Sequence record: PP627279.1
Source of the DNA: Escherichia phage KS_A8
Strand: one strand, 5' to 3'
Length of the DNA: 59,853 nucleotides
Of this stretch, positions 1 to 59,853 are shown piece after piece; positions within the stretch are counted from its first letter, which is position 1, and each line of letters opens with the position of its first letter. The notes beneath the pieces are model-generated. The model saw only the letters and a list, made by a program, of their open reading frames with translations, was not told the DNA's origin and did no database searches. Both the position numbers and the translations under genes were made by a program.

Positions 1-558
1 ATGAACGGGGCAAGTCAAGAGCAATATGATCGTGACTGGACGAATTACATCCAGTATGCAAATAGCTTGTCCGCTGAAGAGATGGCAATACGTGACAAAG
101 TTGTTGCTGAGTACATGTTCGACTACAATTGGACTAACGCTTGCATGAGATGCGGGTTCAATGCTATGTTTGCACAGGAGCTTGGCCAACGCTTTGCCAC
201 GGACTGTTATGTTCGATGGAAGCTCAAGGAGATTGAAAGATCCCGTGTTCAACGTACTTCTGAGCAAGCTAACATTGAAGCAGACCTTGAGCGTCAGCAT
301 ATCATTGAAGCATTAAAACGTGAAGCTCATTATACAGGACCGGGATCTTCTCAAGCTGCTAGAGTCGCCGCATTGGGCAAGCTTGCACAAATTTATGATT
401 TGGATGCTCCCAAGAAGGCTAAGATTGATGTTACTAACAGAGGTGGCGTAATGATAGTCCCTGCTGTAGCAAATATTGACGAATGGGAAAAAACTGCATC
501 CGAGTCTCAACAACGACTAGTTAAAGAGACTGAAGATGGAGCTAAACCGACAACCTGA
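1..558 (+). CDS. terminase small subunit (putative)
   Basis: 185-aa ORF directly upstream of and overlapping the large terminase; ATG at position 1 is served by RBS AAGAAAGGGGG at the window end, implying circular wrap. Function by position only. Confidence 0.4.
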   Translation: MNGASQEQYDRDWTNYIQYANSLSAEEMAIRDKVVAEYMFDYNWTNACMRCGFNAMFAQELGQRFATDCYVRWKLKEIERSRVQRTSEQANIEADLERQHIIEALKREAHYTGPGSSQAARVAALGKLAQIYDLDAPKKAKIDVTNRGGVMIVPAVANIDEWEKTASESQQRLVKETEDGAKPTT

Positions 559-2095
559 TAACATGCCGCGAGTCGTCTGGAAACCACATCCAGGTTCACA
601 GACACTCGCTCTATCCTGCCCCGCTGATATTATCCTATACCACGGAACTCGCGGTCCTGGAAAAACGGACTGCCAGCTTATGCGTTTCCGTAAGAATGTT
701 GGTGTAGGGTACGGTAAATTTTGGAAGGGTATTATATTCGACCGTGAATATAAAAACCTTGATGACCTTGTAACTAAATCCCAGCGTTGGTTTCCTGAAT
801 TTAAAGACGGGGCTAAATTCCTTAGTTCTAAGTCTGATTATAAATGGGTTTGGCCTACTGGTGAAGAGCTACTGTTCCGCGTTGCTTGTAAAGAAAAGGA
901 TTACTGGTCTTATCACGGTCACGAATACCCATTTATCGGATGGAACGAATTGACAAAATATCCGGACGGGCGTTTGTTTGAAGCTATGATGTCCTGTAAC
1001 CGTTCATCTTTCCTACCAGAAGATAACCCAATTATCAATCCAGATGGTACGGTTACATATTTACCGGATATCCCTCTTGAAGTGTTTGCTACCAGTAACC
1101 CGTTCGGTGCGGGGCATAACTGGGTTAAGAAACGCTTCATTGACGCTGCACCGATGGGTAAAATACTCAGGAAGACTACGCGAGTGTTTAACCCGAGGAC
1201 GCAGAAAGACGAAGATGTGGTTACGACGCAATGCCATATCTTTGGTTCGTACCGTGAAAACAAAAACCTAAGTCCAAAATATATTGCAGAACTTATGTCT
1301 ATCACAGACCCGAACAAGCGTGCTGCATGGTTGGGCGGGAGCTGGGATATTACATCCGGTGGTATGTTCGATGATCTGTGGCGTAGCACTGTTCACAAAG
1401 TACGACCATTCCCGATTCCAGCGAGTTGGAAGATTACACGTTCTTTCGACTGGGGTTCTTCAAAACCGTTCTCTGTCGGTTGGTGGGCTATTAGTGATGG
1501 TTCGGATGTTGTGCGTGAAGATGGCACTACATTCTCCACGGTCCGCGGTGACCTGTTTAGGATTAACGAATGGTATGGGACCAACGGTAAAACAAACGAA
1601 GGTCTACATTTGCTGGACTCAGAAATTGCAAGCGGTATACTGGAGCGGGAATTGGCCTGGGGTATACACGATCGTGTAGTTCCTGGTCCTGCGGATAACT
1701 CCATTTGGGATCTGGAGAACAATAACTCCACCGCTGCAACAATGGCGAAGAAAATTCGTCTTAACGGGAAGTTATACAACGGTATACATTGGAAGCGCAG
1801 TGATAAGTCTGCTGGGTCACGTAAACGAGGCTGGCAGAAAATGCGTGAGTTCCTTAAAGCTGCACTGCGGGAAGATGCGAACGGTAAACCTTTGCCCGGT
1901 CCGCGCGAGAATCCGGCAATGTACATTTTTGATAACTGCAACTATTTCTTTGAGCTGGTTCCAAGTCTACCTCGCGATGAAGTAGATCAGGACGACGTTG
2001 ATACGGAATGTGAAGACCATATGGGTGATGAAGTTCGTTATATGGTTCTGGATCAAGCTGTTTATACAGGTGTTGGCAAAACTATCGGTATTTAA
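536..2095 (+). CDS. terL: terminase large subunit
   Basis: 519 aa; N-terminal P-loop-like HGTRGPGKTD; sits between small terminase and portal. Alternative start ATG at 563 just after the upstream stop. Confidence 0.8.
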   Translation: MELNRQPDNMPRVVWKPHPGSQTLALSCPADIILYHGTRGPGKTDCQLMRFRKNVGVGYGKFWKGIIFDREYKNLDDLVTKSQRWFPEFKDGAKFLSSKSDYKWVWPTGEELLFRVACKEKDYWSYHGHEYPFIGWNELTKYPDGRLFEAMMSCNRSSFLPEDNPIINPDGTVTYLPDIPLEVFATSNPFGAGHNWVKKRFIDAAPMGKILRKTTRVFNPRTQKDEDVVTTQCHIFGSYRENKNLSPKYIAELMSITDPNKRAAWLGGSWDITSGGMFDDLWRSTVHKVRPFPIPASWKITRSFDWGSSKPFSVGWWAISDGSDVVREDGTTFSTVRGDLFRINEWYGTNGKTNEGLHLLDSEIASGILERELAWGIHDRVVPGPADNSIWDLENNNSTAATMAKKIRLNGKLYNGIHWKRSDKSAGSRKRGWQKMREFLKAALREDANGKPLPGPRENPAMYIFDNCNYFFELVPSLPRDEVDQDDVDTECEDHMGDEVRYMVLDQAVYTGVGKTIGI

Positions 2096-2106
2096 CTGGA
2101 GGGTAT

Positions 2107-3603
2107 ATGGGTATTGATGCAACTCACCCGCTATACGACAAGTGGAAGAATGCATGGATTAAGTGCAACGACTGCTATGAGGGTGAAGATAAAATTAAGG
2201 AAGAAGGTGTTAAATATCTACCGCCTTTAGCTTCCATGATTATTGATGGGATGAATAATCCTAATGATTTGGGCTTTCAACGTTGGCTTGCCTATCGTCT
2301 GCGTGCTAACTTCCCTGACGATTATTCAAGTGCGGTTACAAACAATCTAGGTCTGCTGCACCAGAAGCCTCCTACAATCCAGCTCCCCCCTGAAATGGAA
2401 TACATGCGGGATCTGTGTACTGCGGACGGTGAAGACATTATTGCTCTGCTACGTCGCATCAACGAAATGCAGTTAAAAAATGGGCGTTTGGGCCTGCTAC
2501 TGGACTTGCCTAAAGGTGAGGATGTAAATAACAGACCTTATATTAGCGTTTATGACGCTTTATCCATTATCAACTGGGATGATGGTAAAGATGAATTGGG
2601 CAATATCAACTTGAACATGGTTGTTCTGGATGAAAGTGGTCCTGTACGTGTCAATCAGTTTGACTGGAAAGAAGAGAAGCGTTATCGCGTTCTACAATTA
2701 GGTCCAATGGACACAGATGAAGTTGCAGGTGGAGCTGTCTACTCCCAACATCTGTTTATTAACAATACCAATTATGATGAAGGGCAAATGATTGCTCCTT
2801 ATTATAAAGGTAATACGCTGGATGAAATTCCTTTCCAGTTTGTCAATACAACAGATATTACCCCAGCACCGGAAGCGCCGCCATTGTTGGGTCTTGCTAA
2901 CATTTGTCTAAGCATGTACCGAAGTGATGCGGATTACCGCCAAAGCTTGCATATGCAGGGTCAGGACACCTTAGTCGTTGTTGGTGGTACTGGGGAGAAT
3001 GGGGATAAAGCCCCTCAACGCATCGGTCCTGGCGCTGTCATTAACGTTGCTATTGGTGGTGACGCTAAATATGTAGGTGTTAGCGGTGACGGTTTGTCCG
3101 AGCAACGTCTCGCACTTGCAGCGGATAAGCAAGAAGCCCAAATTAAAGCCGGGCAAATGGTAAACAATACCAAGAGTACGCAGGAATCGGGTGAAGCCAT
3201 GAAAACGCGTATTGCTGCGCGTACAGCTAGTCTGATTCGAATTGCGTATACTGGTGCGGCTGGTCTGGAAAACTTGCTGAAGGTTTGCGCTAAGTGGATG
3301 GGCGCTGATCCCGAGAAAGTTGTGGTTAAGCCTAATCTTGAATTCACCAAGAGCATGTTTAACGGTCAAGACTTTGTTCAAATTATCACTGCACGCAACC
3401 TTAAAGCTCCGATTAGCTTGCAGTCTATTCATGGCTGGCTTGTTGATCAGGGATTAACCACACTAAGCTTTGAAGAAGAAATGGCAATTCTTGAAGAAGA
3501 GCTTAAGAAGTGGCCTCTGCCTGATGATGCTAAAGCTGATTTAAACGCAGAGCAGCAAGTAAGCAAAGATCCTAAGGAAGACAACGCTTCCGATAAAGAA
3601 TAG
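2107..3603 (+). CDS. portal protein
   Basis: 498 aa, immediately after terL, acidic C-terminus; call from synteny and size. Confidence 0.7.
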   Translation: MGIDATHPLYDKWKNAWIKCNDCYEGEDKIKEEGVKYLPPLASMIIDGMNNPNDLGFQRWLAYRLRANFPDDYSSAVTNNLGLLHQKPPTIQLPPEMEYMRDLCTADGEDIIALLRRINEMQLKNGRLGLLLDLPKGEDVNNRPYISVYDALSIINWDDGKDELGNINLNMVVLDESGPVRVNQFDWKEEKRYRVLQLGPMDTDEVAGGAVYSQHLFINNTNYDEGQMIAPYYKGNTLDEIPFQFVNTTDITPAPEAPPLLGLANICLSMYRSDADYRQSLHMQGQDTLVVVGGTGENGDKAPQRIGPGAVINVAIGGDAKYVGVSGDGLSEQRLALAADKQEAQIKAGQMVNNTKSTQESGEAMKTRIAARTASLIRIAYTGAAGLENLLKVCAKWMGADPEKVVVKPNLEFTKSMFNGQDFVQIITARNLKAPISLQSIHGWLVDQGLTTLSFEEEMAILEEELKKWPLPDDAKADLNAEQQVSKDPKEDNASDKE

Positions 3604-3698
3604 TTGCAACTTCCAAGTTGATCGGTTTATATTAACGAACACGGGGCTGGGACGGCTCAGCTCCAAAAACGTCACACGGGTGACAACGGAGATAAGAA

Positions 3699-4571
3699 AT
3701 GAAAAAGAGTTCTGTAGCTATTAGTGTTGGTATGGCTTTAATTAATCCACGCGCTCGCGGTGAAGGTGATGTGGAACTGGAATACGAATATGCATCTGCG
3801 GAAGAGATCCCGGCAGAGTTTGCAACTCTTTACGCAGAGCAGGGCGGTAAATACGTTCTTGCAAAAGTTAAAGGTGTAGCCCCTGCTGATAGCGTTCGTC
3901 GTCTGGAAAGTGCGTTAGCTAAAGAACGTAACGACCATCGTCAGGTGAAGCAACAGATTAGCGCACTTGGGCGTCCGGTTGAAGAAGTCCTTGCGGACCT
4001 TGATCGTATCCCTCAACTGGAAGCTGCCGCTAACGGTAAAGGTACTCCGGAAGACATCGAAAAGATGGTTAAAGCCCGTCTTGCTCCGCTTGAGCGTCAA
4101 TTGCAAACTGTAGCAGCCGAACGCGATTCCGTTAAGCAGGAAATTGAAGGCTACCGCACTCGCGAAACTAAAGCGAAGATTAAAGACGCAGTTATTGCTG
4201 CTGCATCCGGTGCTAAGCTGCGTCCTTCTGCTATCGAAGATGCGGTGACTTATGCACAGTTGCAAATGACCGTCGACGAGAACGGCAATGTGGTTACGAA
4301 AGATGGGGCTGGTGTAACTCCATACCTAACCCCGGCGGATTGGCTTAACGAGATCCTCCCGAAACGTCCTCACTGGGTTGAAGGTTCTGCTGGTGGCGGT
4401 GCATCTGGTCCGGGCGCTGGCGGCCATCACGGTGAAGACCCATACAGTCACGACGGTTGGAACATCTCTAAGCAGATGAATCTCTGGAAAACTAATCAAT
4501 CTTTAGCTAAACGCTTGGCTGAAAAGAATGGCGTAGACCCGCTGAAGCCTGTACGTCCTGCTAAGAAATAA
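3699..4571 (+). CDS. head scaffolding/morphogenesis protein (putative)
   Basis: 290 aa, helix-rich with charged heptad-like segments, between portal and major capsid; RBS GGAGATAAG before ATG. Confidence 0.35.
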   Translation: MKKSSVAISVGMALINPRARGEGDVELEYEYASAEEIPAEFATLYAEQGGKYVLAKVKGVAPADSVRRLESALAKERNDHRQVKQQISALGRPVEEVLADLDRIPQLEAAANGKGTPEDIEKMVKARLAPLERQLQTVAAERDSVKQEIEGYRTRETKAKIKDAVIAAASGAKLRPSAIEDAVTYAQLQMTVDENGNVVTKDGAGVTPYLTPADWLNEILPKRPHWVEGSAGGGASGPGAGGHHGEDPYSHDGWNISKQMNLWKTNQSLAKRLAEKNGVDPLKPVRPAKK

Positions 4572-4693
4572 GTTGACATCCCGACGTCCCTGATGTTAAG
4601 TTTCAACACATCAGGGACACGGGTTCCTAAACAGCCTTCCACGGGGAAAGGCTACCAACAGTAAACAAATCAATCCTTTTCCTGGAGACAAGT

Positions 4694-5755
4694 ATGTCTA
4701 AATCTAAAATTATTCTGCCATTTGGTCGTGGTGAAACTGACCTGACTCGTTTGAAGGATGTCATTGTCCCTGAGATCTTCACTGGTTATGTGCAGACGCA
4801 GACCGCTGAACTTTCTGCTCTGATTCAATCCGGTGCGGTTGTAATGGACGAGCGTTTATCCGCTAACCTTGCTGGTGCAGGTCTGACTTTTAACGAGCCG
4901 TTCTATAACGACCTGAAAGATGAAGACGAAGATATCGCGGTTGATAAAGGCGATCCGTCCAAACCGTCTAACATCACTACCGGATCTGAAGTTCAGGTTC
5001 GTATGAGTCGTTCAAAATCCTGGGGTTCTGCGGATCTGGTATCAGCTTTGATTGGTAACGACCCAATGACCGCTATCGGTAACCGCGTGTCTGCGTGGTG
5101 GGTCCGCCGTCTGCAAGCTGCATACATCGCAACCTGGAAAGGTGTATTTGCTAATGCGAAGAAATCTCATAACGACGATTTGACTTTCGACATCTCTGGT
5201 TCTTCTTTTGTAAATAACCAGACCAACTTTACCGCGTCTAACTTCATCAACGCAACTGCAACGATGGGTGATGCTGCCCGCGGTCTGACTATGATTATGG
5301 TACACTCTACCGTTCGTAACCGTATGCGTCAGTTGAACCTGATCGACTTCATTCCAGATGCTCGCGGTGAAACTCAGTTTGAGTATTATCAGGGTCTGCG
5401 TATTATTGAAGACGACTCCATGCCACACGATCCGTCTACTGGTGTGTTTGAAAGCTGGCTGTTCGGCCCGGGCGCAACTGCAATGGGTGCTGGATCACCG
5501 AAAGTTCCGACCGCTGTGGTGCGTGACGAAGCCGCTAACCAAGGCGCTGGTGAAGAAGTTCTTCACAACCGTGTTGAATGGATTCTGCATCCGGTTGGCC
5601 ATGCTTGGGCTGCTGCTCAAACTGCTAAAGGTGGTCCGTCTAACGCTGCTACCACTAACAACCTGGCCCATGAAGATTCCTGGCGTCGTGCGTTCCCTGA
5701 GCGCAAGCAGCTTAAAGTTGCACGCCTGATCACTCGTGAGTATCAGGGTTCCTAA
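4694..5755 (+). CDS. major capsid protein
   Basis: 353 aa; position after the scaffold-like gene; followed by a strong intrinsic terminator, as expected for a highly expressed capsid gene. Confidence 0.7.
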   Translation: MSKSKIILPFGRGETDLTRLKDVIVPEIFTGYVQTQTAELSALIQSGAVVMDERLSANLAGAGLTFNEPFYNDLKDEDEDIAVDKGDPSKPSNITTGSEVQVRMSRSKSWGSADLVSALIGNDPMTAIGNRVSAWWVRRLQAAYIATWKGVFANAKKSHNDDLTFDISGSSFVNNQTNFTASNFINATATMGDAARGLTMIMVHSTVRNRMRQLNLIDFIPDARGETQFEYYQGLRIIEDDSMPHDPSTGVFESWLFGPGATAMGAGSPKVPTAVVRDEAANQGAGEEVLHNRVEWILHPVGHAWAAAQTAKGGPSNAATTNNLAHEDSWRRAFPERKQLKVARLITREYQGS

Positions 5756-5786
5756 GGCTTCACTCAACGCCGCGCTGTAGTATTTT

Positions 5787-5813
5787 GGGGACATCTTATG
5801 TCCCCTCTTTTTT
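5787..5813 (+). terminator. rho-independent terminator after the capsid gene
   Basis: GGGGACAT-CTT-ATGTCCCC hairpin followed by TCTTTTTT. Confidence 0.6.
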
Positions 5814-5825
5814 AGGAGAACAACC

Positions 5826-6149
5826 ATGCGTTATCAACGTTATGAGCCACATGACTTGATGGAAAAATCGTTGCAGGTGGAGCCAATTTCGATTACTCTC
5901 GATCCTGCTAAGATTGACACCACAACTTCAGAAGTAAAAACGGTTACTGTTAAAATAAACTTTGTCCCAGGCGGAACTACAAACAAAGCGTATAGCGCGT
6001 CAGTTGACGGTTCCTCTGCTACAATTAAAGACAACGGGGACGGTACAATTACCGTGACCACAACCGAAAGCAGCGGTACTTCAAACTTGACAGTAACGTC
6101 CAAGGCAAAGGATAGTGTTACTGGTACATGTGTTATTAATGTGACCTAA
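5826..6149 (+). CDS. Ig-like (Big_2-type) domain protein, possible capsid decoration
   Basis: 107 aa, Thr/Ser/Val-rich beta-strand pattern (TVTVKINF...GDGTITVTTTESSGTSNLTVTS) typical of bacterial Ig-like domains; lies right after the capsid gene. Confidence 0.45.
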   Translation: MRYQRYEPHDLMEKSLQVEPISITLDPAKIDTTTSEVKTVTVKINFVPGGTTNKAYSASVDGSSATIKDNGDGTITVTTTESSGTSNLTVTSKAKDSVTGTCVINVT

Positions 6150-6165
6150 AAATAAGGATTAAACA

Positions 6166-6819
6166 ATGAAGACATTAATTGAAGCATTGTTAGAACTTGA
6201 TCCGGAAAACCCGAATCATTGGACCAGCGATGGCTTACCTAAAGTAGACGCTCTGCGTTTCGCTACCGCTAACCCGTCTTTAACCCGCGACGATATTACG
6301 ACTGCTGCCCCTCTATTCACCCGCGATAACCGCGTGCTGGAAGAGCCTGAGCCTGTGGAACCCGTTAAATCTGCTGATCCAGTTTTACATGAAGCAGTTA
6401 AACAGGAGAAAGCTCATGAAGAACAAAAGAAAGTCGCGGTTGCAACGATGCAAATCGAAGTTAAGATTAGCGAAGCACTGCGTGCTCTTCTGGAGCCGGA
6501 AAAAATCGGTGACGCTTCCAGCTTAACCGATGAAGAACTGAAAGCGAAGCGCGAAAAGCTTAGCAATGTGGTTAAAGAGATTGCCCACACTAAGCACGCG
6601 TTGGAGCTCGCTATCGCAGACGTTCAAGCGGATCTGGATAAGATTATCGTTGAGCAGGAGCGTCGTCGTCCTAAGTCCGGTCTTACTGCAACTCAGATGT
6701 ATCTTGAAGCGCAGAAAAAACGTAAACCGGAAGACATGCTTTCTGACCATCGCTTCCAGAACCCTATTGACGATCCGGTCGCCCGTATGGTTGCACGTAA
6801 TATGATGCGTCGAGGTTAA
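6166..6819 (+). CDS. hypothetical structural protein
   Basis: 217-aa ORF in the head module, charged and helical; no motif recognised. Confidence 0.3.
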   Translation: MKTLIEALLELDPENPNHWTSDGLPKVDALRFATANPSLTRDDITTAAPLFTRDNRVLEEPEPVEPVKSADPVLHEAVKQEKAHEEQKKVAVATMQIEVKISEALRALLEPEKIGDASSLTDEELKAKREKLSNVVKEIAHTKHALELAIADVQADLDKIIVEQERRRPKSGLTATQMYLEAQKKRKPEDMLSDHRFQNPIDDPVARMVARNMMRRG

Positions 6820-6957
6820 CCATGGAAATGAGCCATAGACAATATGTGTTGTGGCTCCTCCGACGTAATAGAAAACGGCGTCAAGAAGACGCCGTTTCTG
6901 TTCCTGAAGAAGAGCTCCCGCCACTTATCCCTACAACCATCGCAATGAGGAAGAAAG

Positions 6958-7464
6958 ATGGAGATTCCACTGATAGTTGAAGATGGTACTGGTGTATTGG
7001 ACGCCAACAGTTATGTGACCATTGAACAAGTCCGCATGTATGCCGCAATGCGAGGTATTGTACTTCCAAGTGAAGATGAAGATCTAAAGACAAAGATCTT
7101 CGACGCTATGGATTTTGTGGAAGGATACGGTCAACGGTTTAAGGGTTACAAAATGGACCCACAGCAACCGCTAAATTGGCCACGCTACGGTGTGTTTGTG
7201 GATGGGTTCGAGCTACCCCAAAGCCCTTTACCAAAGGCGCTTATAAACGCTGTTTGCCAGCTTACAGCGGACTCAGCTACTGGCGGTCCTCTTAATGGGA
7301 AAACTACTGCATATGCAGTCAAAAGAACTAAAGTAGAAGGTCTTGAAATTGAATATGCAACTGGTAGCACAGCACAGTCAGGTCCAGCAAAAACATATGA
7401 TAAAGCTATGACGTTTTTATCACCTTTGCTGGGTTATCAAATGGGTAATAGATTGATACGGTGA
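6958..7464 (+). CDS. head-tail connector/adaptor protein (putative)
   Basis: 168 aa; position between head and tail genes; N-terminus resembles gp6-like connector proteins (from memory). Confidence 0.4.
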   Translation: MEIPLIVEDGTGVLDANSYVTIEQVRMYAAMRGIVLPSEDEDLKTKIFDAMDFVEGYGQRFKGYKMDPQQPLNWPRYGVFVDGFELPQSPLPKALINAVCQLTADSATGGPLNGKTTAYAVKRTKVEGLEIEYATGSTAQSGPAKTYDKAMTFLSPLLGYQMGNRLIR

Positions 7465-7467
7465 TTT

Positions 7468-7848
7468 ATGAGCTTTTCTTACGAGCAGCTAGTTGAAGCT
7501 GCAAAGCAAATGATCAACGATGCTGGTGTTAACTGTACCCTTGTTGTTATGGAGCAAGGGGAAGGTCAAGATGAATGGGACGATCCGAGCGTTGAAAAAC
7601 GATACCCATTCATTGGAGCTTTCTTTTCACCGAAGGAAAAGATGATTGGCGGCAGTCTTGTTTCTGCTGGTGAGCTGAAAGTGTTGACTTACCCAATGAC
7701 ACCTCCATTGACTCGCGATAAAGCAATGACTGCACGCATTGAGCGTGTGTCACCGGATGGGGAACTGGAAGTGTGGACAATAAATGAGTTTGTTGATACA
7801 CGACCAGCTAACGTTTCTGTTCTTTACACTTTTAAGGTGACGCGATAA
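7468..7848 (+). CDS. head-tail joining protein (putative)
   Basis: 126 aa, tightly packed in the neck gene series. Confidence 0.3.
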   Translation: MSFSYEQLVEAAKQMINDAGVNCTLVVMEQGEGQDEWDDPSVEKRYPFIGAFFSPKEKMIGGSLVSAGELKVLTYPMTPPLTRDKAMTARIERVSPDGELEVWTINEFVDTRPANVSVLYTFKVTR

Positions 7849-8255
7849 TGGGATTCGGGGCGGATATTCGACGTGCAAGTCAGAAGGTACTTGTTCAGAC
7901 AAGCGAGCAAGCCAAAAAAGTCGTTGTCAAGTTCACAGAGAATGTGATACAGGATACTCCTGTTAAGACCGGACGCACAAAAGGTGGTTGGCGGTCATCC
8001 ATTGGTGCGCCGTATGCAACGGAAACTATCCGCCTCGATCCTACTGGAGAGATGGCTAAAGCTGAAGCCCGAGTTGTCGCACGCCAACTACCTAATGATA
8101 AAGACTGGACTTTCTATTTTAGCAACCTGACACCATATGCTGGCAAACTGGAGTTCTTAGGTTGGTCGCAGCAAGCCCCGAACGGTATGGTTCGTATTAA
8201 CGTAGCGAAGCTTCCAATGTTGATACGTCAAGCTATAGCAGAAGGAAAACTATAA
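7848..8255 (+). CDS. neck/tail completion protein (putative)
   Basis: 135 aa, ATGA-type coupling with upstream gene; synteny only. Confidence 0.3.
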   Translation: MGFGADIRRASQKVLVQTSEQAKKVVVKFTENVIQDTPVKTGRTKGGWRSSIGAPYATETIRLDPTGEMAKAEARVVARQLPNDKDWTFYFSNLTPYAGKLEFLGWSQQAPNGMVRINVAKLPMLIRQAIAEGKL

Positions 8256-51834: not shown

Positions 51835-51907
51835 GGTATAGCTCCTTTCGTTAAAGTTAGTTTGCTTATTACTGCCCACCGTAATGATGAGCAGTGTATA
51901 AGAAAAC

Positions 51908-52156
51908 TTACTGCACGATTGCTACGAAATCGGCGGTTGCGATATCCATGCTTGCGAAAGCAACGATGCCATAGTCGGTGTCGTTTTCGGCGTTAAAAGC
52001 TTTGAGGAACTGCTGTACCGCTGCTTTATGGTTAAGCGTTACGTCGATAGCATAGTCCCAGCTATAGACTTTGCGCTTGCCAAAACCTTTAACTGCAATG
52101 CGTGCGCCTTTGGTGTTAGTTGGTGCCAAAAATTTGGTGACGATAGAAGTAGCCAT
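51908..52156 (-). CDS. hypothetical protein
   Basis: 82-aa ORF. Confidence 0.3.
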   Translation of the reverse strand: MATSIVTKFLAPTNTKGARIAVKGFGKRKVYSWDYAIDVTLNHKAAVQQFLKAFNAENDTDYGIVAFASMDIATADFVAIVQ

Positions 52157-52225
52157 GATGTATATCCTCGTTTTGTTTAAGTTGACTTATTATTGCCCAG
52201 TCAGATCAACTAGGCAAGATATAAA

Positions 52226-52438
52226 TCACTTAATTTGTACCAAATCGTATTCTTTGTAAATTTCGCTAATGTACATATCGAACTGACCCATTAAGAAGAT
52301 TTCGGCCTCCTCCCAGCTTGGGGCAGATACATAACCGGCTATTTTACCGGACGCGAGTTCCACTAATTTGAATTCCATGATGCAACCCTTAATGTGGTTA
52401 AGCAGTATTGCTTTGTTGAAGTAATAATAGCCTTGCAT
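52226..52438 (-). CDS. hypothetical protein (first leftward early gene)
   Basis: 70-aa ORF next to the divergent promoter region. Confidence 0.3.
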   Translation of the reverse strand: MQGYYYFNKAILLNHIKGCIMEFKLVELASGKIAGYVSAPSWEEAEIFLMGQFDMYISEIYKEYDLVQIK

Positions 52439-52589
52439 CGTGATATTGAATAGGCCAAAAGTGCGATTTTGATATTGTTTTGCATCTAGTGAAAATTATG
52501 CTTGCCATGCATATTTAGCACTAATGGCCTAACTAACATCACATTATCTGGCGTATTCGCGCGGGCGCACACATGCTTATAAGGTGGTG

Positions 52590-52715
52590 CCGGATCGACC
52601 AGGTGGGAGCGGTGCACAGGATCGACCAGGGGCATCCGGTGCCCTGCGTGTGCGGAGCCTACCAGGTGGAAGCAGCTCCTGCGTGTGCCGGAAATACCAG
52701 GGGCGCGCGAGCCCA
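52590..52715. repeat. GC-rich degenerate direct repeats in the divergent control region
   Basis: GGATCGACCAGG at 52592 and 52619; ACCAGGTGG at 52598 and 52671; ACCAGGGG at 52625 and 52696; CTGCGTGTGC at 52644 and 52679. Confidence 0.4.
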
Positions 52716-52756
52716 TGCACTTTACAAAATATTTTTATAAAAAGTGCAAAAAGGTG

Positions 52757-52785
52757 TAGACACATGATCGGTCTAGCACTACTAT
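52757..52785 (+). promoter_or_regulatory. sigma70-like promoter for the rightward block
   Basis: TAGACA-N17-TACTAT about 50 bp upstream of the 52838 start. Confidence 0.3.
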
Positions 52786-52837
52786 ATACACATACCGCAA
52801 GGGTACTACAAATTAACTAATTCACGGGGGGTACAAA

Positions 52838-53101
52838 ATGGTCCGCATCCTGGAACGTTATAAAAACGAAGCTACTGGCGCTATTGCATTCAAACGCATG
52901 TTAGTAAAACAAATCGACGGTTTATTCCGTGTCGTTAAAGAAGTCGATTACGGCAACGGCGCAGGGGTGAGCACCACTATCGTCCCGGGCATTAAAGCGT
53001 ATAAAACTTTAAAAGGGGCCGAGAAAGCCTTAGCCGCCTGGAAACCTGCTCGTTATCAATTGACCCGTGTCGAAGGGCTTATGCAGGAAGGTAAAATCTA
53101 A
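52838..53101 (+). CDS. hypothetical protein
   Basis: 87 aa, RBS GGGGGG. Confidence 0.35.
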   Translation: MVRILERYKNEATGAIAFKRMLVKQIDGLFRVVKEVDYGNGAGVSTTIVPGIKAYKTLKGAEKALAAWKPARYQLTRVEGLMQEGKI

Positions 53102-53169
53102 GTTTGTTTATACAATGGGCATTAATACAGTGCCCATTAATAAGCTAACTAATCCTATCGAGGTATATT

Positions 53170-53454
53170 ATGTCCATCGTTACTATGTCGTTCTTCGACC
53201 ATTGCAATAACGAAAAACAAATTATCGTTAACCTGCAAAAAGGGTTGGTTGTTGCACGCAATGCTAACCGTCAATGCATCGCGCTAACCGATTTTGCTTT
53301 CCGCCTTAACGTGGACAACACCACCGCCAAAAATATCGTTCACGATACGGCGATGGAAGCTGCTCATGCTGCGAAGGATAAAGGTATCCGCGCAGCACGC
53401 GAAATCATGCACAAAGCGCTCGGCATCACGTTCTTCGTTGGCATTAAGGGGTAA
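53170..53454 (+). CDS. hypothetical protein
   Basis: 94 aa, RBS GAGG. Confidence 0.3.
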   Translation: MSIVTMSFFDHCNNEKQIIVNLQKGLVVARNANRQCIALTDFAFRLNVDNTTAKNIVHDTAMEAAHAAKDKGIRAAREIMHKALGITFFVGIKG

Positions 53455-53459
53455 CTACT

Positions 53460-53603
53460 ATGGCACGCAAATACTCGCTTACACGCGCGCAGCACGCGCT
53501 ATTATTGCAGGTTATGCGCATGGAGTACGAAGAGACTACATGGGCGCAGGCTATGCAAACTGGGCGCGAGTTCTACGCGCAATTAATAGCACAAAATGCC
53601 TAG
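53460..53603 (+). CDS. small hypothetical protein (47 aa)
   Basis: Not in the track; ATG 53460 after AAGGGG; the overlapping 53294-53656 track ORF is in another frame. Confidence 0.3.
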   Translation: MARKYSLTRAQHALLLQVMRMEYEETTWAQAMQTGREFYAQLIAQNA

Positions 53604-53661
53604 ACAACATGATCGGTCTGGTGGATACTACACACATCAACCAAACAACGGGGTAAACAAA

Positions 53662-53901
53662 ATGCGTAGTTTCAAATGTGTAAGCGTAAACGATAATGCT
53701 AAGGCTAGTGCTAAGGGTCTGTTCACAGTAGGTAAAGTGTATGACTTCAACATGGAAAGTTATATACACATAACCCTCACGGGCGTAATGTTCGGCGACG
53801 TTGGTGCTGTACGCTGCGATTTAAACAAGTACACGGAAAAGGAATATGCCCTTATCAGCCGCTACACGGGCGAGCCGTTAGCTGTGTTCCATGCAGCTTA
53901 A
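53662..53901 (+). CDS. hypothetical protein
   Basis: Start set at MRSFK (RBS GGGGTAA); 79 aa. Confidence 0.3.
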   Translation: MRSFKCVSVNDNAKASAKGLFTVGKVYDFNMESYIHITLTGVMFGDVGAVRCDLNKYTEKEYALISRYTGEPLAVFHAA

Positions 53902-53928
53902 GCTATAACGCACACAGCGCCACGCTAG

Positions 53929-53967
53929 CGAGCTAATGCACAAAGGCAATGGTAATGCATTAGCTCG
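53929..53967. repeat. 12-bp perfect inverted repeat (stem-loop/operator candidate)
   Basis: CGAGCTAATGCA (53929-53940) and TGCATTAGCTCG (53956-53967) separated by 15 nt. Confidence 0.4.
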
Positions 53968-53978
53968 GGCGAAACAGG

Positions 53979-54050
53979 CGCACAGCGTCGCGCACAGCTC
54001 GCACAGCGCACACCGACCCACGCAGGCCCAGCCGCGCGACCCGACCCATC
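53979..54050. repeat. GC-rich CGCACAGC and CGACCC direct repeats
   Basis: CGCACAGC at 53979, 53991 and 54000, followed by CGACCCA, CGACCCG, ACCCATCC. Confidence 0.35.
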
Positions 54051-54335
54051 CTTTTCCAGGTACTTGGATCGCTGGGGCGTGCCCTGTCCATCCTGATAGT
54101 AAGTGCTTGTCTAAATCTCACCCATCACTTTACTATCCACCTACATCCATGACCCCCCACCTACCTTCTTTTTGAATATATTGCGCTCATCCTTTCTAAA
54201 TATATGGATTTTGGTAGTAAATCCTGAGTCGTCAACGTATAATTCGTCTTGTAGCTGCTCCATAGCTACCATCTTTAAGCGGATGCAACCAATTTCTATC
54301 AATTCTTACCAGTTTTAGAGCATCAAGGAGGTATT

Positions 54336-54593
54336 ATGTGCGACTCCAGTGCAAGCGCTACACCCAGCACCTCCAGCAATGTGGTTACAGAGGTAAATGC
54401 AATGCGATTAGGTCCATATCGCGGCTATTATGGTCGTGCTGCATGGAATGACGCTACTCAACGTTTTGAAGGCTGGATTATCTGCCCGGAACGTGTTAAA
54501 TTTCACTCCGTAAAAGAGAAAAATATCGTTCTTAATTTTCAAAAATGTGTCACTAAATATGTAGAGGAGCAAGAAGAATGTCTTACCAATTAG
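54336..54593 (+). CDS. hypothetical protein
   Basis: 85 aa, RBS AAGGAGG. Confidence 0.35.
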   Translation: MCDSSASATPSTSSNVVTEVNAMRLGPYRGYYGRAAWNDATQRFEGWIICPERVKFHSVKEKNIVLNFQKCVTKYVEEQEECLTN

Positions 54594-54946
54594 CATTAGA
54601 AGCTGCTGGATGCGAAGTATTAGATTTTGTTGAGTTTGGTTGTTATCAGGGTGAATGGCTTGCCCTGATAAGAAAAGATGGTGTATTGGGAGTTTGCGAA
54701 GGGTCTTATGGATCATGCTCTGGTTGCGATTCATTTCAAGCTGAATTTGGCTGGGATGATGATGAGGAAAGTCCCGATTATCAGAAACGTCTTGCTGAAT
54801 TTGGTGAAAGTTACTTACCAGCTAACAGCTTTGAAGAAATGATCGCCAAACTTCAAAAGGATGTTGAGAATTATGATTGGGATGACGATTATAAATCTAT
54901 GCTAGAAACTGTTCGTGAATGGCAGAAAAATATAGGACAAGTATAA
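54578..54946 (+). CDS. hypothetical Cys-containing acidic protein
   Basis: 122 aa with CEGSYGSCSGCD cysteine cluster. Confidence 0.3.
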   Translation: MSYQLALEAAGCEVLDFVEFGCYQGEWLALIRKDGVLGVCEGSYGSCSGCDSFQAEFGWDDDEESPDYQKRLAEFGESYLPANSFEEMIAKLQKDVENYDWDDDYKSMLETVREWQKNIGQV

Positions 54947-54997
54947 TTATCAATCTATAATGGGCTCTACGGAGCCCTTAATTATCTGGAGGTTGTT

Positions 54998-55300
54998 ATG
55001 CTGTATTTAGGAATGGACGAAACTGGACACGCAATTCCTTCTGTTAACAAAGAGACGCAAGTATTTACAGACTATTACGGGTCTGCTATCCCTGTAGAGC
55101 CCTGGGCAAACTTTATTGCTGTAGACGCAGACGGTAAAGTTCATTGTTATGACGCCAAACCTTCTTGCTATGAATCTGGTAAGCAATGGATGCTTGGCGT
55201 ATACGGTTTGCATGTCCGCTACTGCGGTGAAGTTGACCTTGAAGGTATGGACTGGCGCGATACGCTAAGGGAAATCAAAGAATATAGGCTTAACCCATGA
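54998..55300 (+). CDS. hypothetical protein (paralog of 33421-33675 product)
   Basis: 100 aa; shares AVDADGKVHCYDA and VDLEGMDWRDTLRE segments with the minus-strand paralog. Confidence 0.35.
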   Translation: MLYLGMDETGHAIPSVNKETQVFTDYYGSAIPVEPWANFIAVDADGKVHCYDAKPSCYESGKQWMLGVYGLHVRYCGEVDLEGMDWRDTLREIKEYRLNP

Positions 55301-55521
55301 AAATATTCATGATACTAGGCGTTATACTTGCCGCTTTCGTTGTATTTGCAATTGTAGACTCTAAAGAAATGGAGCGGCAGAATTGTCAACGTACTGGTAA
55401 CAGCCGGGATGATATCATTTGGCAATATATTTACGATGCAAAGGGTAATGTTATGTCAATGTATCCTCAGGTTATTACTGAGTATGAATATAAATGTGAT
55501 GACCGTAACAGGTGGAGATAA
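55297..55521 (+). CDS. membrane-anchored hypothetical protein
   Basis: 74 aa with N-terminal transmembrane helix. Confidence 0.3.
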   Translation: MKIFMILGVILAAFVVFAIVDSKEMERQNCQRTGNSRDDIIWQYIYDAKGNVMSMYPQVITEYEYKCDDRNRWR

Positions 55522-55715
55522 TAATGGATAGACTATCCGATGAGCGCGTTGCTAAGCTTGCAGAATATGACTGTGCAAGCAATGAGGAGGTTATGTCTTT
55601 AGCACAAGAGGTGAAGGAACTTCGAGCTGTAGCAAAGGACTTCCTGCGTCGTAATAAATATGGTCCTTTGTTCTATCGTGATTTGTATAACCGTTTTAAG
55701 GAGATTGTGAAATGA
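55512..55715 (+). CDS. hypothetical protein
   Basis: 67-aa ORF. Confidence 0.3.
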   Translation: MEIIMDRLSDERVAKLAEYDCASNEEVMSLAQEVKELRAVAKDFLRRNKYGPLFYRDLYNRFKEIVK

Positions 55716-55981
55716 TTACCGCTCAAGAAGCTCGTGAATTAAGCGATAAGCTGGATATTAGCGAAGATATTGAATTTATCAGTAACAGCATTCGCGTAGC
55801 TGCTACAAAGGGATACAATAAAGTATCACTGGTAACAAAATACGGATCTGTTGGCAATCCCGACACTCAAGACCCAACCACTATGAAGATTGCTAAATGG
55901 TTAGCTGATTCTGGTTTTACGGTGTTATATTATCCTTCCATGGACCAACGTGATAACGAGCGTACTGAGGTAGCATGGTGA
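55712..55981 (+). CDS. hypothetical protein
   Basis: 89-aa ORF. Confidence 0.3.
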   Translation: MITAQEARELSDKLDISEDIEFISNSIRVAATKGYNKVSLVTKYGSVGNPDTQDPTTMKIAKWLADSGFTVLYYPSMDQRDNERTEVAW

Positions 55982-56048
55982 TTGAAGAAAATATCAAATA
56001 TTGGAAAGGCTTTATTGACGAAATGTTGAAACCATTGGAGAAGAAATA

Positions 56049-56441
56049 ATGCTATTAGTCGTCACCGGAGGTCGAGATTTTAAGCATGTGGAGTATATTT
56101 ATGCTCAATTGGATAAGCTGCATATGCAAAGAAGGATAACCACACTTCGCCACGGTGACGCTGACGGTGTTGACCGCATTTGCGCACAGTGGGCAGAGCG
56201 CAACGGTATTAAGACAGAAGCGTTCCCTGCCCCGTGGGACAATCTTTCCTTACCAAATACCAAGATACGGTATAACGCTAAGGGTGCTTATAATGCACAA
56301 GCTGGCGCTTACCGCAATCAATTAATGCTGGATACTGATCCTAAACCAGATCACGCTATTGTGTTTCCTGGCGGAGCTGGTACTATGGATATGTACAGAC
56401 GGATTAAAGCATCCGGTATCCCTTACACATTAGCGGAGTAA
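56049..56441 (+). CDS. SLOG/LOG-family Rossmann-fold protein (DprA/LOG-like, putative)
   Basis: 130 aa; N-terminal VVTGGRDF and C-terminal VFPGGAGTMDM resemble the LOG-family PGGxGT motif. Confidence 0.35.
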   Translation: MLLVVTGGRDFKHVEYIYAQLDKLHMQRRITTLRHGDADGVDRICAQWAERNGIKTEAFPAPWDNLSLPNTKIRYNAKGAYNAQAGAYRNQLMLDTDPKPDHAIVFPGGAGTMDMYRRIKASGIPYTLAE

Positions 56442-56444
56442 ATA

Positions 56445-56915
56445 ATGGCTGACGTTAAAACTATTGTTGATGCAATGGACGAATCCAAAGACTGCCAACT
56501 GAAGAAGTCGTTTGAAGTAAAACAGGTTACAGAGACTCAGTTAGTCTGTAATTTTGCGCGTTATTGTGGACTGGGGCGCGGGAAAGACTGGAACGGGCTT
56601 ATTGTTATGCCCACATCACAGATCCTCGTTTACGTCCGCAATATTGTAGAAGATCTTTTGCGTCTTCAAATAGATATCGGTGATGTAGAAATTAATATGA
56701 CCGCGAGCTCTACCATTGTGGTTAAATGGCAGTCGGGCGAGACACTGCGTTTGGAAGCGTGCCATTGTGCTAAGAGCTTGCACCACCTGCGAGGCTGTCA
56801 TTACCAGTTCGTTGGGTTTGTACATCCGCAAGGGTTAAGCGAGCGTACGGCGCTTGTAGCGCGTTTGCTGCTGCGTCCTTATAATAACGAGCCGGAAGTT
56901 ATATACGAGGCATAA
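56445..56915 (+). CDS. hypothetical protein
   Basis: 156 aa with several Cys/His. Confidence 0.3.
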   Translation: MADVKTIVDAMDESKDCQLKKSFEVKQVTETQLVCNFARYCGLGRGKDWNGLIVMPTSQILVYVRNIVEDLLRLQIDIGDVEINMTASSTIVVKWQSGETLRLEACHCAKSLHHLRGCHYQFVGFVHPQGLSERTALVARLLLRPYNNEPEVIYEA

Positions 56916-56916
56916 A

Positions 56917-57342
56917 ATGTCAGTAAATTTTGTCAAACAGCCAACTTTAAATACATGCGTTTCTGCGTGTTTGGCAATGATCCTTAATAAACCTGTTGAG
57001 AAGGTTATTGAGGAATTTCATAGTCGTTATTATAACAACTGGGAGATCACTATCAGCGAATATTTGACTAAAAACGGCGTCCAGCATCATTGTTCAGAAG
57101 GTGGTGGGCGTGAAACTTTGCATATGGGAGGTTTGTTCCTGTGCACGGTGCCAAGTCTTAATATTCCTGGCGCATTGCACCAGATTGTGATTGATATGAC
57201 GGATCACAAGTTTATTGTGCATGATCCAATTAAAGGATGGGAAGGTAAAAAGTTCTATGTTGGTCCGGATCAAGATCCTGAAGAGCCTGGAGCTTTTATC
57301 ATTCATACTTGGGTCAAAGACGTTGAAATCCTGCCTTATTAA
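56917..57342 (+). CDS. papain-like cysteine peptidase (C39-like, putative)
   Basis: 141 aa; QPTLNTCVSACLAMIL fits the C39 Q...C..A.LAMI pattern; downstream HKFIVHDP histidine motif. Confidence 0.45.
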   Translation: MSVNFVKQPTLNTCVSACLAMILNKPVEKVIEEFHSRYYNNWEITISEYLTKNGVQHHCSEGGGRETLHMGGLFLCTVPSLNIPGALHQIVIDMTDHKFIVHDPIKGWEGKKFYVGPDQDPEEPGAFIIHTWVKDVEILPY

Positions 57343-57404
57343 TTTTCTTGCTATCACATAACCCTTCATTGTATTGTGTACCCATCGAATAAGAGGGGTA
57401 CACA

Positions 57405-57590
57405 ATGACCAAACTATACGCCGGATTGTTTTTATTTGCGACGTTGATGTTCGCTGGGCTTTATACCTATACAGTAGTCGAACAACCTTCCACGGTTATC
57501 CGAATCTTTGCAAGTACAGGGCTTTGCATCTGTCTTATTCTATTTGTTTTATGCATTGTTATTATCCAAGACCAAAGGAAAGTTAAATGA
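57405..57590 (+). CDS. small two-helix membrane protein
   Basis: 61 aa, two hydrophobic helices. Confidence 0.3.
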   Translation: MTKLYAGLFLFATLMFAGLYTYTVVEQPSTVIRIFASTGLCICLILFVLCIVIIQDQRKVK

Positions 57591-58051
57591 CCACAATTGC
57601 GTTTGATGGAAAAGTATTAGCTGCGGACCGTGGCGTTATGCGCGGGGAAGCTGTGACTGCTTATAAGAAAGTTCATAGCGTGAATGGACATCGTGGACGG
57701 TTTTTACTGGGCTTGTGCGGTTTGACAGCATTTACCGATCAGGTGTTGCGTTATTTTAATAGCGCGGAACCTGTTAAGTTCCCTGATATTAAACTTTACA
57801 GCAAAGATGATGATTACGGGCAAACTTGCGGTCTTGCTATCACTCCGGAAGGTACTTGCCATTTTATTTATAATGATGGTACTTTGAGCGAGCCCATGCT
57901 GGATGGATGGGGATCTGAGGGTAGCGGTTGTGTGTTTGCCGCTGGTGCATTAGCCGCTGGTGCAAGCGCAAGCGAAGCCATTGAGCTGGCAATTAAACAC
58001 ACCACATGCGCATTCCTGGGAGTTGATACAATATCATTTGAGGGTTTTTAA
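57587..58051 (+). CDS. Ntn-hydrolase fold protein, HslV/proteasome beta-like (putative)
   Basis: 154 aa; begins MTTIAFDGK (Thr at position 2 as potential N-terminal nucleophile); Gly-rich GSEGSGCVFAAGALAAGAS resembles the HslV GSGG segment (from memory). Confidence 0.3.
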   Translation: MTTIAFDGKVLAADRGVMRGEAVTAYKKVHSVNGHRGRFLLGLCGLTAFTDQVLRYFNSAEPVKFPDIKLYSKDDDYGQTCGLAITPEGTCHFIYNDGTLSEPMLDGWGSEGSGCVFAAGALAAGASASEAIELAIKHTTCAFLGVDTISFEGF

Positions 58052-58312
58052 ATGACTACATTCAGTCACCTGATCCCACCTGCTTATCATAGTAAGGTAG
58101 TTGACCACGGGACGCATGTTGTAATTGGTGGCGAAATCTTTATCACAGATAACGAGGAAATCGCCATTGCAATTATTGACAGCACTCAGCATGACTTTAT
58201 GGTTATCCTGCAACACGAACCAGATAACTTCACTTTTTACTCCAGCTACGGGGTCGATAAAGGTGGAAAAAGCCTTGTTAGCTGGTACATTAGCGAGTGG
58301 TTTGACGGGTAA
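58052..58312 (+). CDS. hypothetical protein
   Basis: 86-aa ORF. Confidence 0.3.
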   Translation: MTTFSHLIPPAYHSKVVDHGTHVVIGGEIFITDNEEIAIAIIDSTQHDFMVILQHEPDNFTFYSSYGVDKGGKSLVSWYISEWFDG

Positions 58313-58394
58313 TCTCCTTAGATCAATTCTCCTTGCGCCGTATCAAGTTTCTCTGTTACCCTTGAGTGGTTCATGTCAAGCGGAGGAACTCGAT

Positions 58395-58832
58395 ATGGCA
58401 CTTCAACCTCGTGGTATTCGTAATAACAATCCAGGCAATATTCGCTGGGGTGATAATTGGCAGGGCTTAGTTCCTGCTGATAAGCGAACCGATAAATCTT
58501 TTGCTCAATTCACGCAACCGATTTACGGCATTCGTGCGCTAGCGAAAATCCTGACAAACTACACCAAACGTGAAGGCTTGCCCAATGTGGGTAAGAAAAA
58601 CATCGACACTGTACGTGAAATTATCGCTCGCTGGGCACCGCCTAACGAAAACGATACGGAAGCGTATATTCGCTCTGTTGCCAAAGCAATTGGTGTTCAA
58701 CCTAACGATCCAATTAATGTCTTCGACAAGGCAATTATGTCAGGATTGGTGAAAGCAATCATTCGTCATGAAAATGGCATGATGCCCTATACCGATGACG
58801 TAATTAACCGCGCTATTGCAATGGTACTTTAA
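58395..58832 (+). CDS. conserved hypothetical protein, candidate endolysin by position
   Basis: Start set at ATG 58395 (RBS GGAGGAA); 145 aa with RGIRNNNPGNIRWG motif; directly upstream of holin and spanins. No catalytic motif recognised. Confidence 0.3.
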   Translation: MALQPRGIRNNNPGNIRWGDNWQGLVPADKRTDKSFAQFTQPIYGIRALAKILTNYTKREGLPNVGKKNIDTVREIIARWAPPNENDTEAYIRSVAKAIGVQPNDPINVFDKAIMSGLVKAIIRHENGMMPYTDDVINRAIAMVL

Positions 58833-58868
58833 CTGACGGGGCGTTAGCCCCTTTTATTTGGAGGGAAC

Positions 58869-59213
58869 ATGTTCAATTCACCCAACGAACATTGGGCAGT
58901 TCTAGCGGGGTTTGCGTTTATCTCCCTCATTGGGGGAGCTCTCGGTTATGTCATGCGTACAATAGACGCTGGTAAGAAAGTACGGGCAAGTATTGCGTTT
59001 CTTGAAGGCTTATCCGCCGCTTTCTTTGGCGTTATAATGTATGCGATCTACAGGGAGTTTAACATCAGCCTTTGGTTCGCTTTTGGCCTTGCTGGCCTAT
59101 TTGCTTGGGCAGGTTCACGTGCTACGCTAAAAGCCCTAACGTCGCTTATAGCTTCACGGACAGGGATCAAACTCGATTCAGGGGACTGCAAACATGAAAA
59201 CGATTCTAAATAA
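58869..59213 (+). CDS. holin (putative)
   Basis: 114 aa with three hydrophobic helices and charged C-terminus; immediately upstream of Rz/Rz1. Confidence 0.5.
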   Translation: MFNSPNEHWAVLAGFAFISLIGGALGYVMRTIDAGKKVRASIAFLEGLSAAFFGVIMYAIYREFNISLWFAFGLAGLFAWAGSRATLKALTSLIASRTGIKLDSGDCKHENDSK

Positions 59214-59670
59214 CTTCTTCGGTTTTATAAAAACTAAACCGCGTCTGTTTATCGAGTATTTGATGATCGGCGCGGTTGTGTTTTTATGCGGGGTGGCTGC
59301 ATACTTGTGGTCACAGAACGAGCTCAGCAAAACTAATTTAAATCATGCTGAGCAAAGACTAACCGTTGTAGAACGGGACAATGCAAAGCTGGGCGAAGCT
59401 GTTGTATTTCTTGCATCCCAACGGGAGAAGGATACTGAATCCTATCGAAAATTGGCTTCAGCAATTGAAAGTGAGCAACATAACCACAGGTTGCTTCAGG
59501 ACAAATTAAAAGCACTGGAGAAAAGCAATGCCGACGTCAAAGCTTATCTTAATGAGCGTGTTCCTGATGATTTGCGCAGGCTGCTCGACGGAGATACAAC
59601 CTCCACCACCGCCGCAGATAGTGAAGATAAAACTTCCGGCCCATCTGTTGGTAGAATGTCGGGAAGTTGA
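59194..59670 (+). CDS. Rz: i-spanin (Rz-like)
   Basis: 158 aa; N-terminal transmembrane helix, coiled-coil periplasmic domain; contains the Rz1 start in another frame. Confidence 0.6.
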   Translation: MKTILNNFFGFIKTKPRLFIEYLMIGAVVFLCGVAAYLWSQNELSKTNLNHAEQRLTVVERDNAKLGEAVVFLASQREKDTESYRKLASAIESEQHNHRLLQDKLKALEKSNADVKAYLNERVPDDLRRLLDGDTTSTTAADSEDKTSGPSVGRMSGS

Positions 59671-59833
59671 TAAATATCCTTTGGTTTATACAAGGGACAT
59701 TATCCAACGTTTGCAGGATACAGAAACAGCTCTGACTGAATGTAAACTGAGGGTTAAGGAAATCATACGCTATGAAGCTGAAAATGTTTCGCTTGATTTT
59801 GTAGGATCAAGCAATTATATTCAGCCTAAATAG
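59528..59833 (+). CDS. Rz1: o-spanin (Rz1-like lipoprotein)
   Basis: Signal peptide ending in lipobox-like ICAGC followed by proline-rich STEIQPPPPPQ; overlaps the Rz 3' end. Confidence 0.55.
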   Translation: MPTSKLILMSVFLMICAGCSTEIQPPPPPQIVKIKLPAHLLVECREVDKYPLVYTRDIIQRLQDTETALTECKLRVKEIIRYEAENVSLDFVGSSNYIQPK

Positions 59834-59853
59834 CAATAAGAAAGGGGGCTTCC

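Follow-up and report, generated by a model that had tools for sequence, protein, structure and literature searches.

The record of Escherichia phage KS_A8 (PP627279.1) holds 59,853 bp of DNA with 44.7% G+C, which was analysed over its full length and is here called the window. It opens at the start codon of terS, the gene for the small terminase, and closes shortly after the stop codon of the gene for an o-spanin, an Rz1-like lipoprotein (Table 1). The junction between these two ends (59853 to 1), and the possible location of the ends of the virion DNA, are the subject of this analysis. An earlier note, made from the sequence alone, had reported that the Rz1 gene stops at 59833 and that a strong ribosome-binding site (RBS) precedes the ATG at position 1, and each of these elements was found at its coordinates. 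The o-spanin gene overlaps the i-spanin gene in a different reading frame, and the N-terminus of its product reads ...FLMICAGC followed by a run of prolines. From its stop codon (TAG) to the terS ATG there are 20 nt, little more than the terS RBS itself, which consists of the Shine-Dalgarno-like sequence AAGAAAGGGGG and the 5-nt spacer CTTCC.

Pairing of the final 20 nt of the window with the anti-Shine-Dalgarno sequence of 16S rRNA was calculated at -10.7 kcal/mol, the third strongest value among 90 putative gene starts (top 4%), and only 0.28% of random 20-mers drawn from the window reached it. The presence of the terS RBS at the opposite end of the file is well beyond chance. The sequence AAGAAAGGGGG is conserved in the phages Greed, slur01, phiG7 and STP-SP5. 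Upstream of base 1 the terS frame has a TAA codon at 59827-59829 and, from there on, no ATG, GTG or TTG, which makes base 1 the earliest position at which terS can start.

The last 700 and the first 700 bases of the window were joined into a query of 1,400 nt and searched in the phage collection. Fifteen differently linearised records hold this query internally, including slur01, SLUR25, SLUR63, SLUR75, SLUR76, SLUR26, Greed, phiG7, ECP2304, PLYYY01, CSP1, CSP1C, STP-SP5 and RCIP0359, and for the closest of these the match likewise extends over 1,400 nt. The alignments with Greed and slur01 are identical base for base, and those with phiG7 and the more distant Salmonella phage STP-SP5 contain a few substitutions and no insertions. 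The exact 35-nt junction was also present in three IMG/VR contigs, and one metagenomic IMG/VR contig of 60.7 kb continues straight across it. The earlier note had named additional sequence between the end and the start of the window as the finding that would overturn its reading; none was found in these records.

At the level of the whole genome, the window and Greed are circular permutations of each other over their full length: positions 1-41457 correspond to Greed 18689-60042 and positions 41331-59853 to Greed 1-18688, with internal module replacements as the only gaps. This alignment extends over 92.5% of the window. At its own two ends the Greed record (KX534337.1) overlaps with itself by 127 bp (window 41331-41457), the signature of an untrimmed circular assembly graph and probably k-mer sized. 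With the genome collinear with Greed, and the junction matched base for base without a break in Greed and slur01 and collinearly in all other records, the idea that the window is incomplete and that native sequence is missing between 59853 and 1 is so improbable as to be negligible. Judged by these comparisons, the ends of the window are adjacent in native DNA and nothing is missing at the junction. The description of the window as a complete, circularly wrapped genome is thus borne out by the 15 records, the IMG/VR contigs and the collinearity with Greed.

Searches with the segments 1-8000, 24001-49000 and 57853-59853 matched approximately 35-55 phage records. The best matches were 93-99% identical and all belong to the genus Seuratvirus (Queuovirinae), among them KS_A3, GottfriedDienst, CAjan, Seurat, slur01, Greed and the SLUR series. 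Over the three large queried segments, identity to Seurat, CAjan, Greed and the isolates of the BASEL collection is 93-99%, which exceeds the genus criterion of approximately 70%. The length of the window falls inside the 56-61 kb range of Seuratvirus genomes, and its bidirectional layout in two strand blocks is a feature of the genus. In the 24-49 kb region, relatives that are 93-95% identical carry annotations for queC, queD, queE, folE and a 7-deazaguanine-inserting enzyme; the assignment of this preQ0 cluster comes from the annotations of the relatives only. Gene order, size and G+C content agree with Seurat and CAjan, and the CAjan record shares both its first and its last base with the window. 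No record identical to the window was found in the phage collection searched. The window differs from Seurat and CAjan as a separate isolate, in which modules of the tail fibre (18.95-21.63 kb) and among the small early genes have been replaced. By sequence comparison the window represents a further isolate of the well-sampled genus Seuratvirus.

The tail-fibre segment dissimilar to Greed spans 18950-21626, and its lack of similarity is consistent with the exchange of a receptor-binding module. Further small modules replaced with respect to Greed lie at 46431-46717, 48769-49657 and 54581-54938. A search of 5,426 complete E. coli genomes with the window gave no match, which indicates that it is not a prophage or plasmid; the phage is a virulent E. 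coli siphophage of the genus Seuratvirus. No tRNA was found in a search of the window, and Rfam at gathering thresholds returned nothing in it.

About a dozen records share their first base with the window and several more begin 3-12 nt upstream, and opening genomes at terS is stated as a convention for Seurat and for the BASEL phages; the break at terS is therefore a curatorial convention and not a DNA end. Because the virion DNA of phages of this kind is terminally redundant, its reads assemble as a closed circle, which annotators then rotate to make the A of the small-terminase ATG base 1. Storage of a complete phage genome with terS first is an ordinary and already known situation. The Seurat record (KM236243.1) itself opens 183 nt earlier, directly after the i-spanin stop codon; this opening splits the o-spanin gene between both ends of that record, in which the gene is unannotated.

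In phage lambda, cos lies between Rz/Rz1 and nu1. The window resembles lambda in that a lysis cassette stands directly upstream of the small terminase gene, and this order could suggest lambda-like cos ends at or near the lysis-terS junction, with the record break as a physical end. The 20 nt between the o-spanin stop codon and the terS ATG are occupied by the RBS and leave no room for cos, the junction is read through in 15 assemblies, and no relative has reported cos ends; the window likewise gives no evidence of cohesive ends. In addition, the large terminase TerL matches the T4-type Terminase_6N family and not a lambda-type family; the match to Pfam Terminase_6N is partial, and a sequence search of TerL against solved structures gave no hit. 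The short spacer and the different terminase family exclude a lambda-like cos at the junction, and cos ends anywhere near it are highly improbable.

Taken together, the window is very probably a complete, unit-length Seuratvirus genome opened at terS, with the virion ends elsewhere, most likely where the repeats of its relatives place them. No repeat was found between the window's own two ends. The word complete refers here to unit length: if the terminal repeats of relatives described below are real, virion DNA holds a second copy of approximately 50.26-54.09 kb.

The earlier note had held that physical ends (cos or pac) could not be deduced from this linearisation. That is correct for the window alone, and comparison with relatives adds candidates. 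The divergent early/late region is found twice in two Seuratvirus records that have the same genome layout as the window, ECP2304 and the Hafnia phage yong3. In ECP2304 (63,590 bp), positions 1-3695 are 100% identical to 59896-63590, a terminal direct repeat of 3,695 bp, and in yong3 (62,823 bp) positions 1-3424 are 100% identical to 59400-62823, a terminal direct repeat of 3,424 bp. The repeats cover homologues of 50.26-54.09 kb, a segment that the window, unlike these two records, holds once. In the repeat region ECP2304 and yong3 are only 72-95% identical to the window, and the repeat interiors are mosaic, with parts unrelated among the three phages.

The right edges of both repeats fall on the same homologous nucleotide: ...|ATCCATCCTGATAG in ECP2304, ...|GTCCATCCTGATAG in yong3 and 54085|54086 in the window. 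The sequence RTCCATCCTGATAG directly follows the repeat in both ECP2304 and yong3. The left edges map within approximately 15 nt of each other, at window positions 50,253-50,267. Homology of six other relatives to the window starts at 54,081-54,087, and a homology block of slur01 starts at window position 50,274. Each predicted edge lies in a stretch poor in open reading frames (ORFs). The AT-rich stretch at the left edge, within the minus-strand block, holds three repeats of the CCACTATAAA type and a perfect 17-nt inverted repeat (50181-50197 and 50317-50333), and may be a replication origin or a cluster of early promoters. Short repeats of the GCGCACAG type are clustered at 53950-54085, just inside the predicted right edge; they are common to the window and yong3 and do not occur in ECP2304. 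A scan of IMG/VR with the 15-nt boundary motif gave mostly chance matches.

The two repeats could be assembly artefacts, contigs extended past their own start, and would then be uninformative about ends. The yong3 record is labelled circular and yet contains the repeat twice, no paper describing either determination was found, and assemblers do leave overlapping contig ends, as the 127 bp in Greed illustrate. At 3.4-3.7 kb, however, the overlaps greatly exceed the length of a k-mer artefact, and at 72-95% identity in the region the repeats still end at the same nucleotide and begin within approximately 15 nt of each other. Both edges, moreover, lie in non-coding stretches and at homology breakpoints of other genomes. 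An artefactual origin of both repeats is accordingly considered unlikely.

Packaging by a pac-type headful mechanism would also fit a unit genome opened at terS: virion DNA would be permuted and terminally redundant, with no fixed ends apart from the pac start. Relatives circularise on assembly, and several reports on them point in this direction and weigh against long terminal repeats. The Seurat announcement assigns pac-headful packaging from the similarity of TerL, which is identical to that of the window; the authors of OddieOddie took circular assembly as possible headful packaging; Vid5 was called circularly permuted, with data not shown; and S4, whose TerL is 50% identical to that of the window, was assigned P1-type headful packaging by PhageTerm. 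The pac site of S4 was predicted in an intergenic region far from terS, and the synteny from the lysis genes to terS is as in the window. In a 2026 preprint PhageTerm failed to reorient a Seuratvirus assembly. In 9g many reads start at a single position within the early/late control region, and this position is crossed by other reads; the one-sided peak was counted in favour of fixed ends and would suit a pac site too.

The edges of the ECP2304 and yong3 repeats, coinciding to the base on the right and to approximately 15 nt on the left, would not be expected from a permuted population, and assembler overlaps from such a population should not coincide in this way in two phages. Circularly permuted ends would have no fixed boundaries, whereas the repeats of these two isolates end at the same homologous base, an observation made on relatives and not on the window's DNA. 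Direct terminal repeats of 1,091 bp were also measured, by mapping of Nanopore reads, in the Pseudomonas phage iggy, a TerL relative of the window. The Seurat assignment rests on similarity, and a later study could not assign a packaging strategy to related terminases against 86 references. Headful packaging from a pac site is therefore regarded as possible, but as clearly the less probable mode.

Further points count against terminal repeats in the window. The ends of the window are inferred from relatives, not from reads of this phage. No publication was found on how the ECP2304 and yong3 repeats were obtained, and the circular flag on the yong3 record leaves some probability to an origin in assembly. 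The mapped end of 9g (28,243) has no sequence similarity to the predicted boundary of the window; homology between the two was rejected, the local alignment being no better than that of shuffled sequences (140/500).

With these points weighed, long direct terminal repeats of the T5 type are the best-supported packaging model for the phage of the window, and the comparison favours them to a moderate degree. The choice between cos and pac offered in the earlier note appears too narrow for this reason. For the genus, the repeats make it somewhat probable that Seuratvirus virions carry exact repeats of approximately 3.4-3.8 kb, which would enclose small early genes and the divergent control region, with RTCCATCCTGATAG marking the terminase cut, and that they are not packaged by the pac-headful mechanism reported for the type phage Seurat. 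From a start near 50,26x, the packaged chromosome of the window would pass over the junction (59853 to 1) and continue round to its end at 54,085. Approximately 3.8 kb would be duplicated, giving approximately 63.7 kb of virion DNA, and the duplicated segment would hold, besides the divergent early/late control region, small early genes on the minus strand and a few small genes on the plus strand. This suggests that the real virion ends are not at the terS junction but 6-10 kb away from it.

Phage T5 carries a multi-kilobase exact repeat at both ends of its DNA; the repeat bears the pre-early genes, which enter the cell first, and short-read assemblies collapse it to a circle. The T5 repeat is approximately 10 kb long (10,219 bp). 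The Seuratvirus model resembles T5 in mechanism only, with no sequence relationship, and Seuratvirus is not known to share the two-step DNA transfer of T5. Closer to the window are 9g (Nonagvirus) and iggy (Iggyvirus), which share a homologous terminase, a bidirectional genome and lysis genes just upstream of terS. The iggy record opens beside the early/late divergent region; the physical end of 9g and the opening of the iggy record both lie in the early/late control neighbourhood, and arrays of an ACCAGG motif are present there. In contrast, the iggy repeat is 1,091 bp long against approximately 3.8 kb predicted for the window, only one end of 9g has been mapped, and outside the ACCAGG motif the nucleotide similarity of 9g and iggy to the window is negligible.

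The record break is a matter of bookkeeping: genes and signals should be read across it, the terS RBS being at the far end of the file, and the window is usable as a complete genome. The side lead on packaging mode is modest. If the terminal-repeat model is true, the packaging mode quoted for the genus would be wrong, and most deposited records would fall short of the true genome length by approximately 4 kb. Whichever end entered the cell first would then bring in the same small early genes and control region. The repeat should in that case be part of any synthetic rebooting or engineering of these phages, whose 7-deazaguanine DNA makes them of interest.

Table 1 Features of the KS_A8 window discussed in the text, in order of position
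Feature	Coordinates	Strand	Evidence and remarks
terS, small terminase	1-558	+	phrog_5334, E 1.2e-59; weak Pfam Terminase_2 match; first gene of the record by convention
terL, large terminase	536-2095	+	Pfam Terminase_6N, phrog_2
Portal protein	2107-3603	+	phrog_145, E 1.6e-118; Pfam DUF4055
Lipoprotein moron, 77 aa	18311-18544	-	phrog_12984 lipoprotein, E 2.4e-55; between two tail-fibre genes of the plus block
Bidirectional terminator hairpin	24077-24098	.	AAAAGGGGCAAACGCCCCTTTC between stop codons at 24070 and 24100; -16.2 kcal/mol
ORF with its own PHROG family	46175-46399	+	Inside the minus block
AT-rich stretch with predicted left edge	49990-50657	.	No ORF of at least 60 aa over 670 bp; within the minus block
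Predicted single copy of long direct terminal repeat	50260-54085	.	Homology to ECP2304 and yong3 only; left edge 50,253-50,267
Divergent early/late control region, 399 bp	52439-52837	.	Between minus gene 52226-52438 and plus gene 52838-53101
Accessory array, four direct repeats of ~25 nt with ACCAGG core	52587-52709	+	Consensus GTGCCGGAnnnACCAGGKG
ORF-poor stretch with predicted right edge	53902-54335	.	Only ORF of at least 60 aa is 53936-54175, with no PHROG family and a low-complexity translation
GTCCATCCTGATAG, conserved after the repeat; candidate terminase cut or recognition site	54086-54099	+	Comparison of ECP2304 and yong3; motif occurs once in the window
ORF with endolysin domain (aa 86-234)	58125-58832	+	phrog_873 endolysin, E 1.9e-63
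Terminator-like GC-rich hairpin and T-run (GGGGCGTTAGCCCC TTTTATTT)	58838-58851	+	Pattern scan, -11.4 kcal/mol; annotated terminator in Seurat
Holin	58869-59213	+	Pfam Phage_holin_3_3, E 4.8e-10; phrog_785
i-spanin (Rz-like), N-terminal membrane helix	59194-59670	+	phrog_89 Rz-like spanin, phrog_5975; translation
o-spanin (Rz1-like lipoprotein)	59528-59833	+	Pfam PF23793 'Rz1-like LysC', E 4.7e-12; PHROG spanin family; last gene of the record
Shine-Dalgarno-like AAGAAAGGGGG	59838-59848	+	5-nt spacer CTTCC, then terS ATG at base 1

The genes on both sides of the junction are those of lysis and packaging. TerS of the window is 46% identical to that of 9g and 39% to that of iggy; the corresponding values for TerL are 100% for Seurat, 67% for 9g, 63% for iggy and 50% for S4. 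The annotated Seurat homologue of the endolysin corresponds to approximately 58395-58832 of the window, within the longer ORF. Between the endolysin and holin genes, and merely 17 nt ahead of the holin start, stands the terminator-like hairpin at 58838-58851. Given a strong terminator-like hairpin before the holin gene, expression of holin, spanin and terS would need read-through or antitermination, unless the hairpin is a stabiliser of an RNA 3' end. A second hairpin, at 59791-59812, was considered as a terminator that would separate terS from the spanin genes, and was rejected: it is weak, with three GC pairs and no T-run, lies inside coding sequence and carries an uncompensated break in STP-SP5. 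Since the stretch from the lysis genes to terS contains no convincing terminator, these genes are probably co-transcribed, and the late plus block continues unbroken across the record break.

According to the earlier note, the rightward gene blocks read continuously across the window ends, with one strand switch each at approximately 24.1 kb and at 52.4-52.8 kb. Plus-strand genes indeed fill 52838-59853 and 1-24070, with positive GC skew on both sides of the junction, and minus-strand genes fill 24100-52438. Both switches were located where the note had placed them, and the sign of the GC skew reverses at these positions too. The single-switch description is approximate, with two small exceptions, the minus-strand gene at 18311-18544 and the plus-strand ORF at 46175-46399. 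At the first switch, Seurat carries an annotated bidirectional terminator at the equivalent of 24077-24098. The second is the divergent control region, in which a promoter-like TAGACA-17-TACTAT lies at 52757-52785; the small proteins encoded on either side of this region were scanned against Pfam and PHROG with uninformative results.

Four of the seven plus-strand ACCAGG hexamers of the whole window lie within 130 nt in the accessory array of the control region, which is flanked by short repeats of the CGCGCG type. An ACCAGG array occurs in the equivalent control region of 9g (three copies, with a 19/19-nt identical stretch), CAjan (four copies), SLUR25 (three copies) and iggy. It is absent from Seurat, slur01 and WildeMaa, and is therefore dispensable; in slur01 it is cleanly deleted between the flanking CGCGCG-type repeats. 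A role as an essential pac site or TerS recognition site was rejected, since Seurat, slur01 and WildeMaa lack the array despite nearly identical terminase genes. Rfam gave no match to the array, and the ORFs that overlie it belong to no family. It is possibly an operator or an iteron.

The lipoprotein gene on the minus strand has a homologue in Seurat that is annotated as a putative lipoprotein and 'apparent moron' and is accompanied by a bidirectional terminator; the protein may have a role in superinfection exclusion. Beyond the control region, the first gene on the plus strand encodes an 87-aa protein (phrog_27467), and its first 60 nt (52832-52896) are 89% identical to a gene of Wifcevirus, FEC19 and ECML-117. 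This gene occurs in many unrelated E. coli myophages of approximately 68 kb, and it looks like a small mobile gene common to several phage families.

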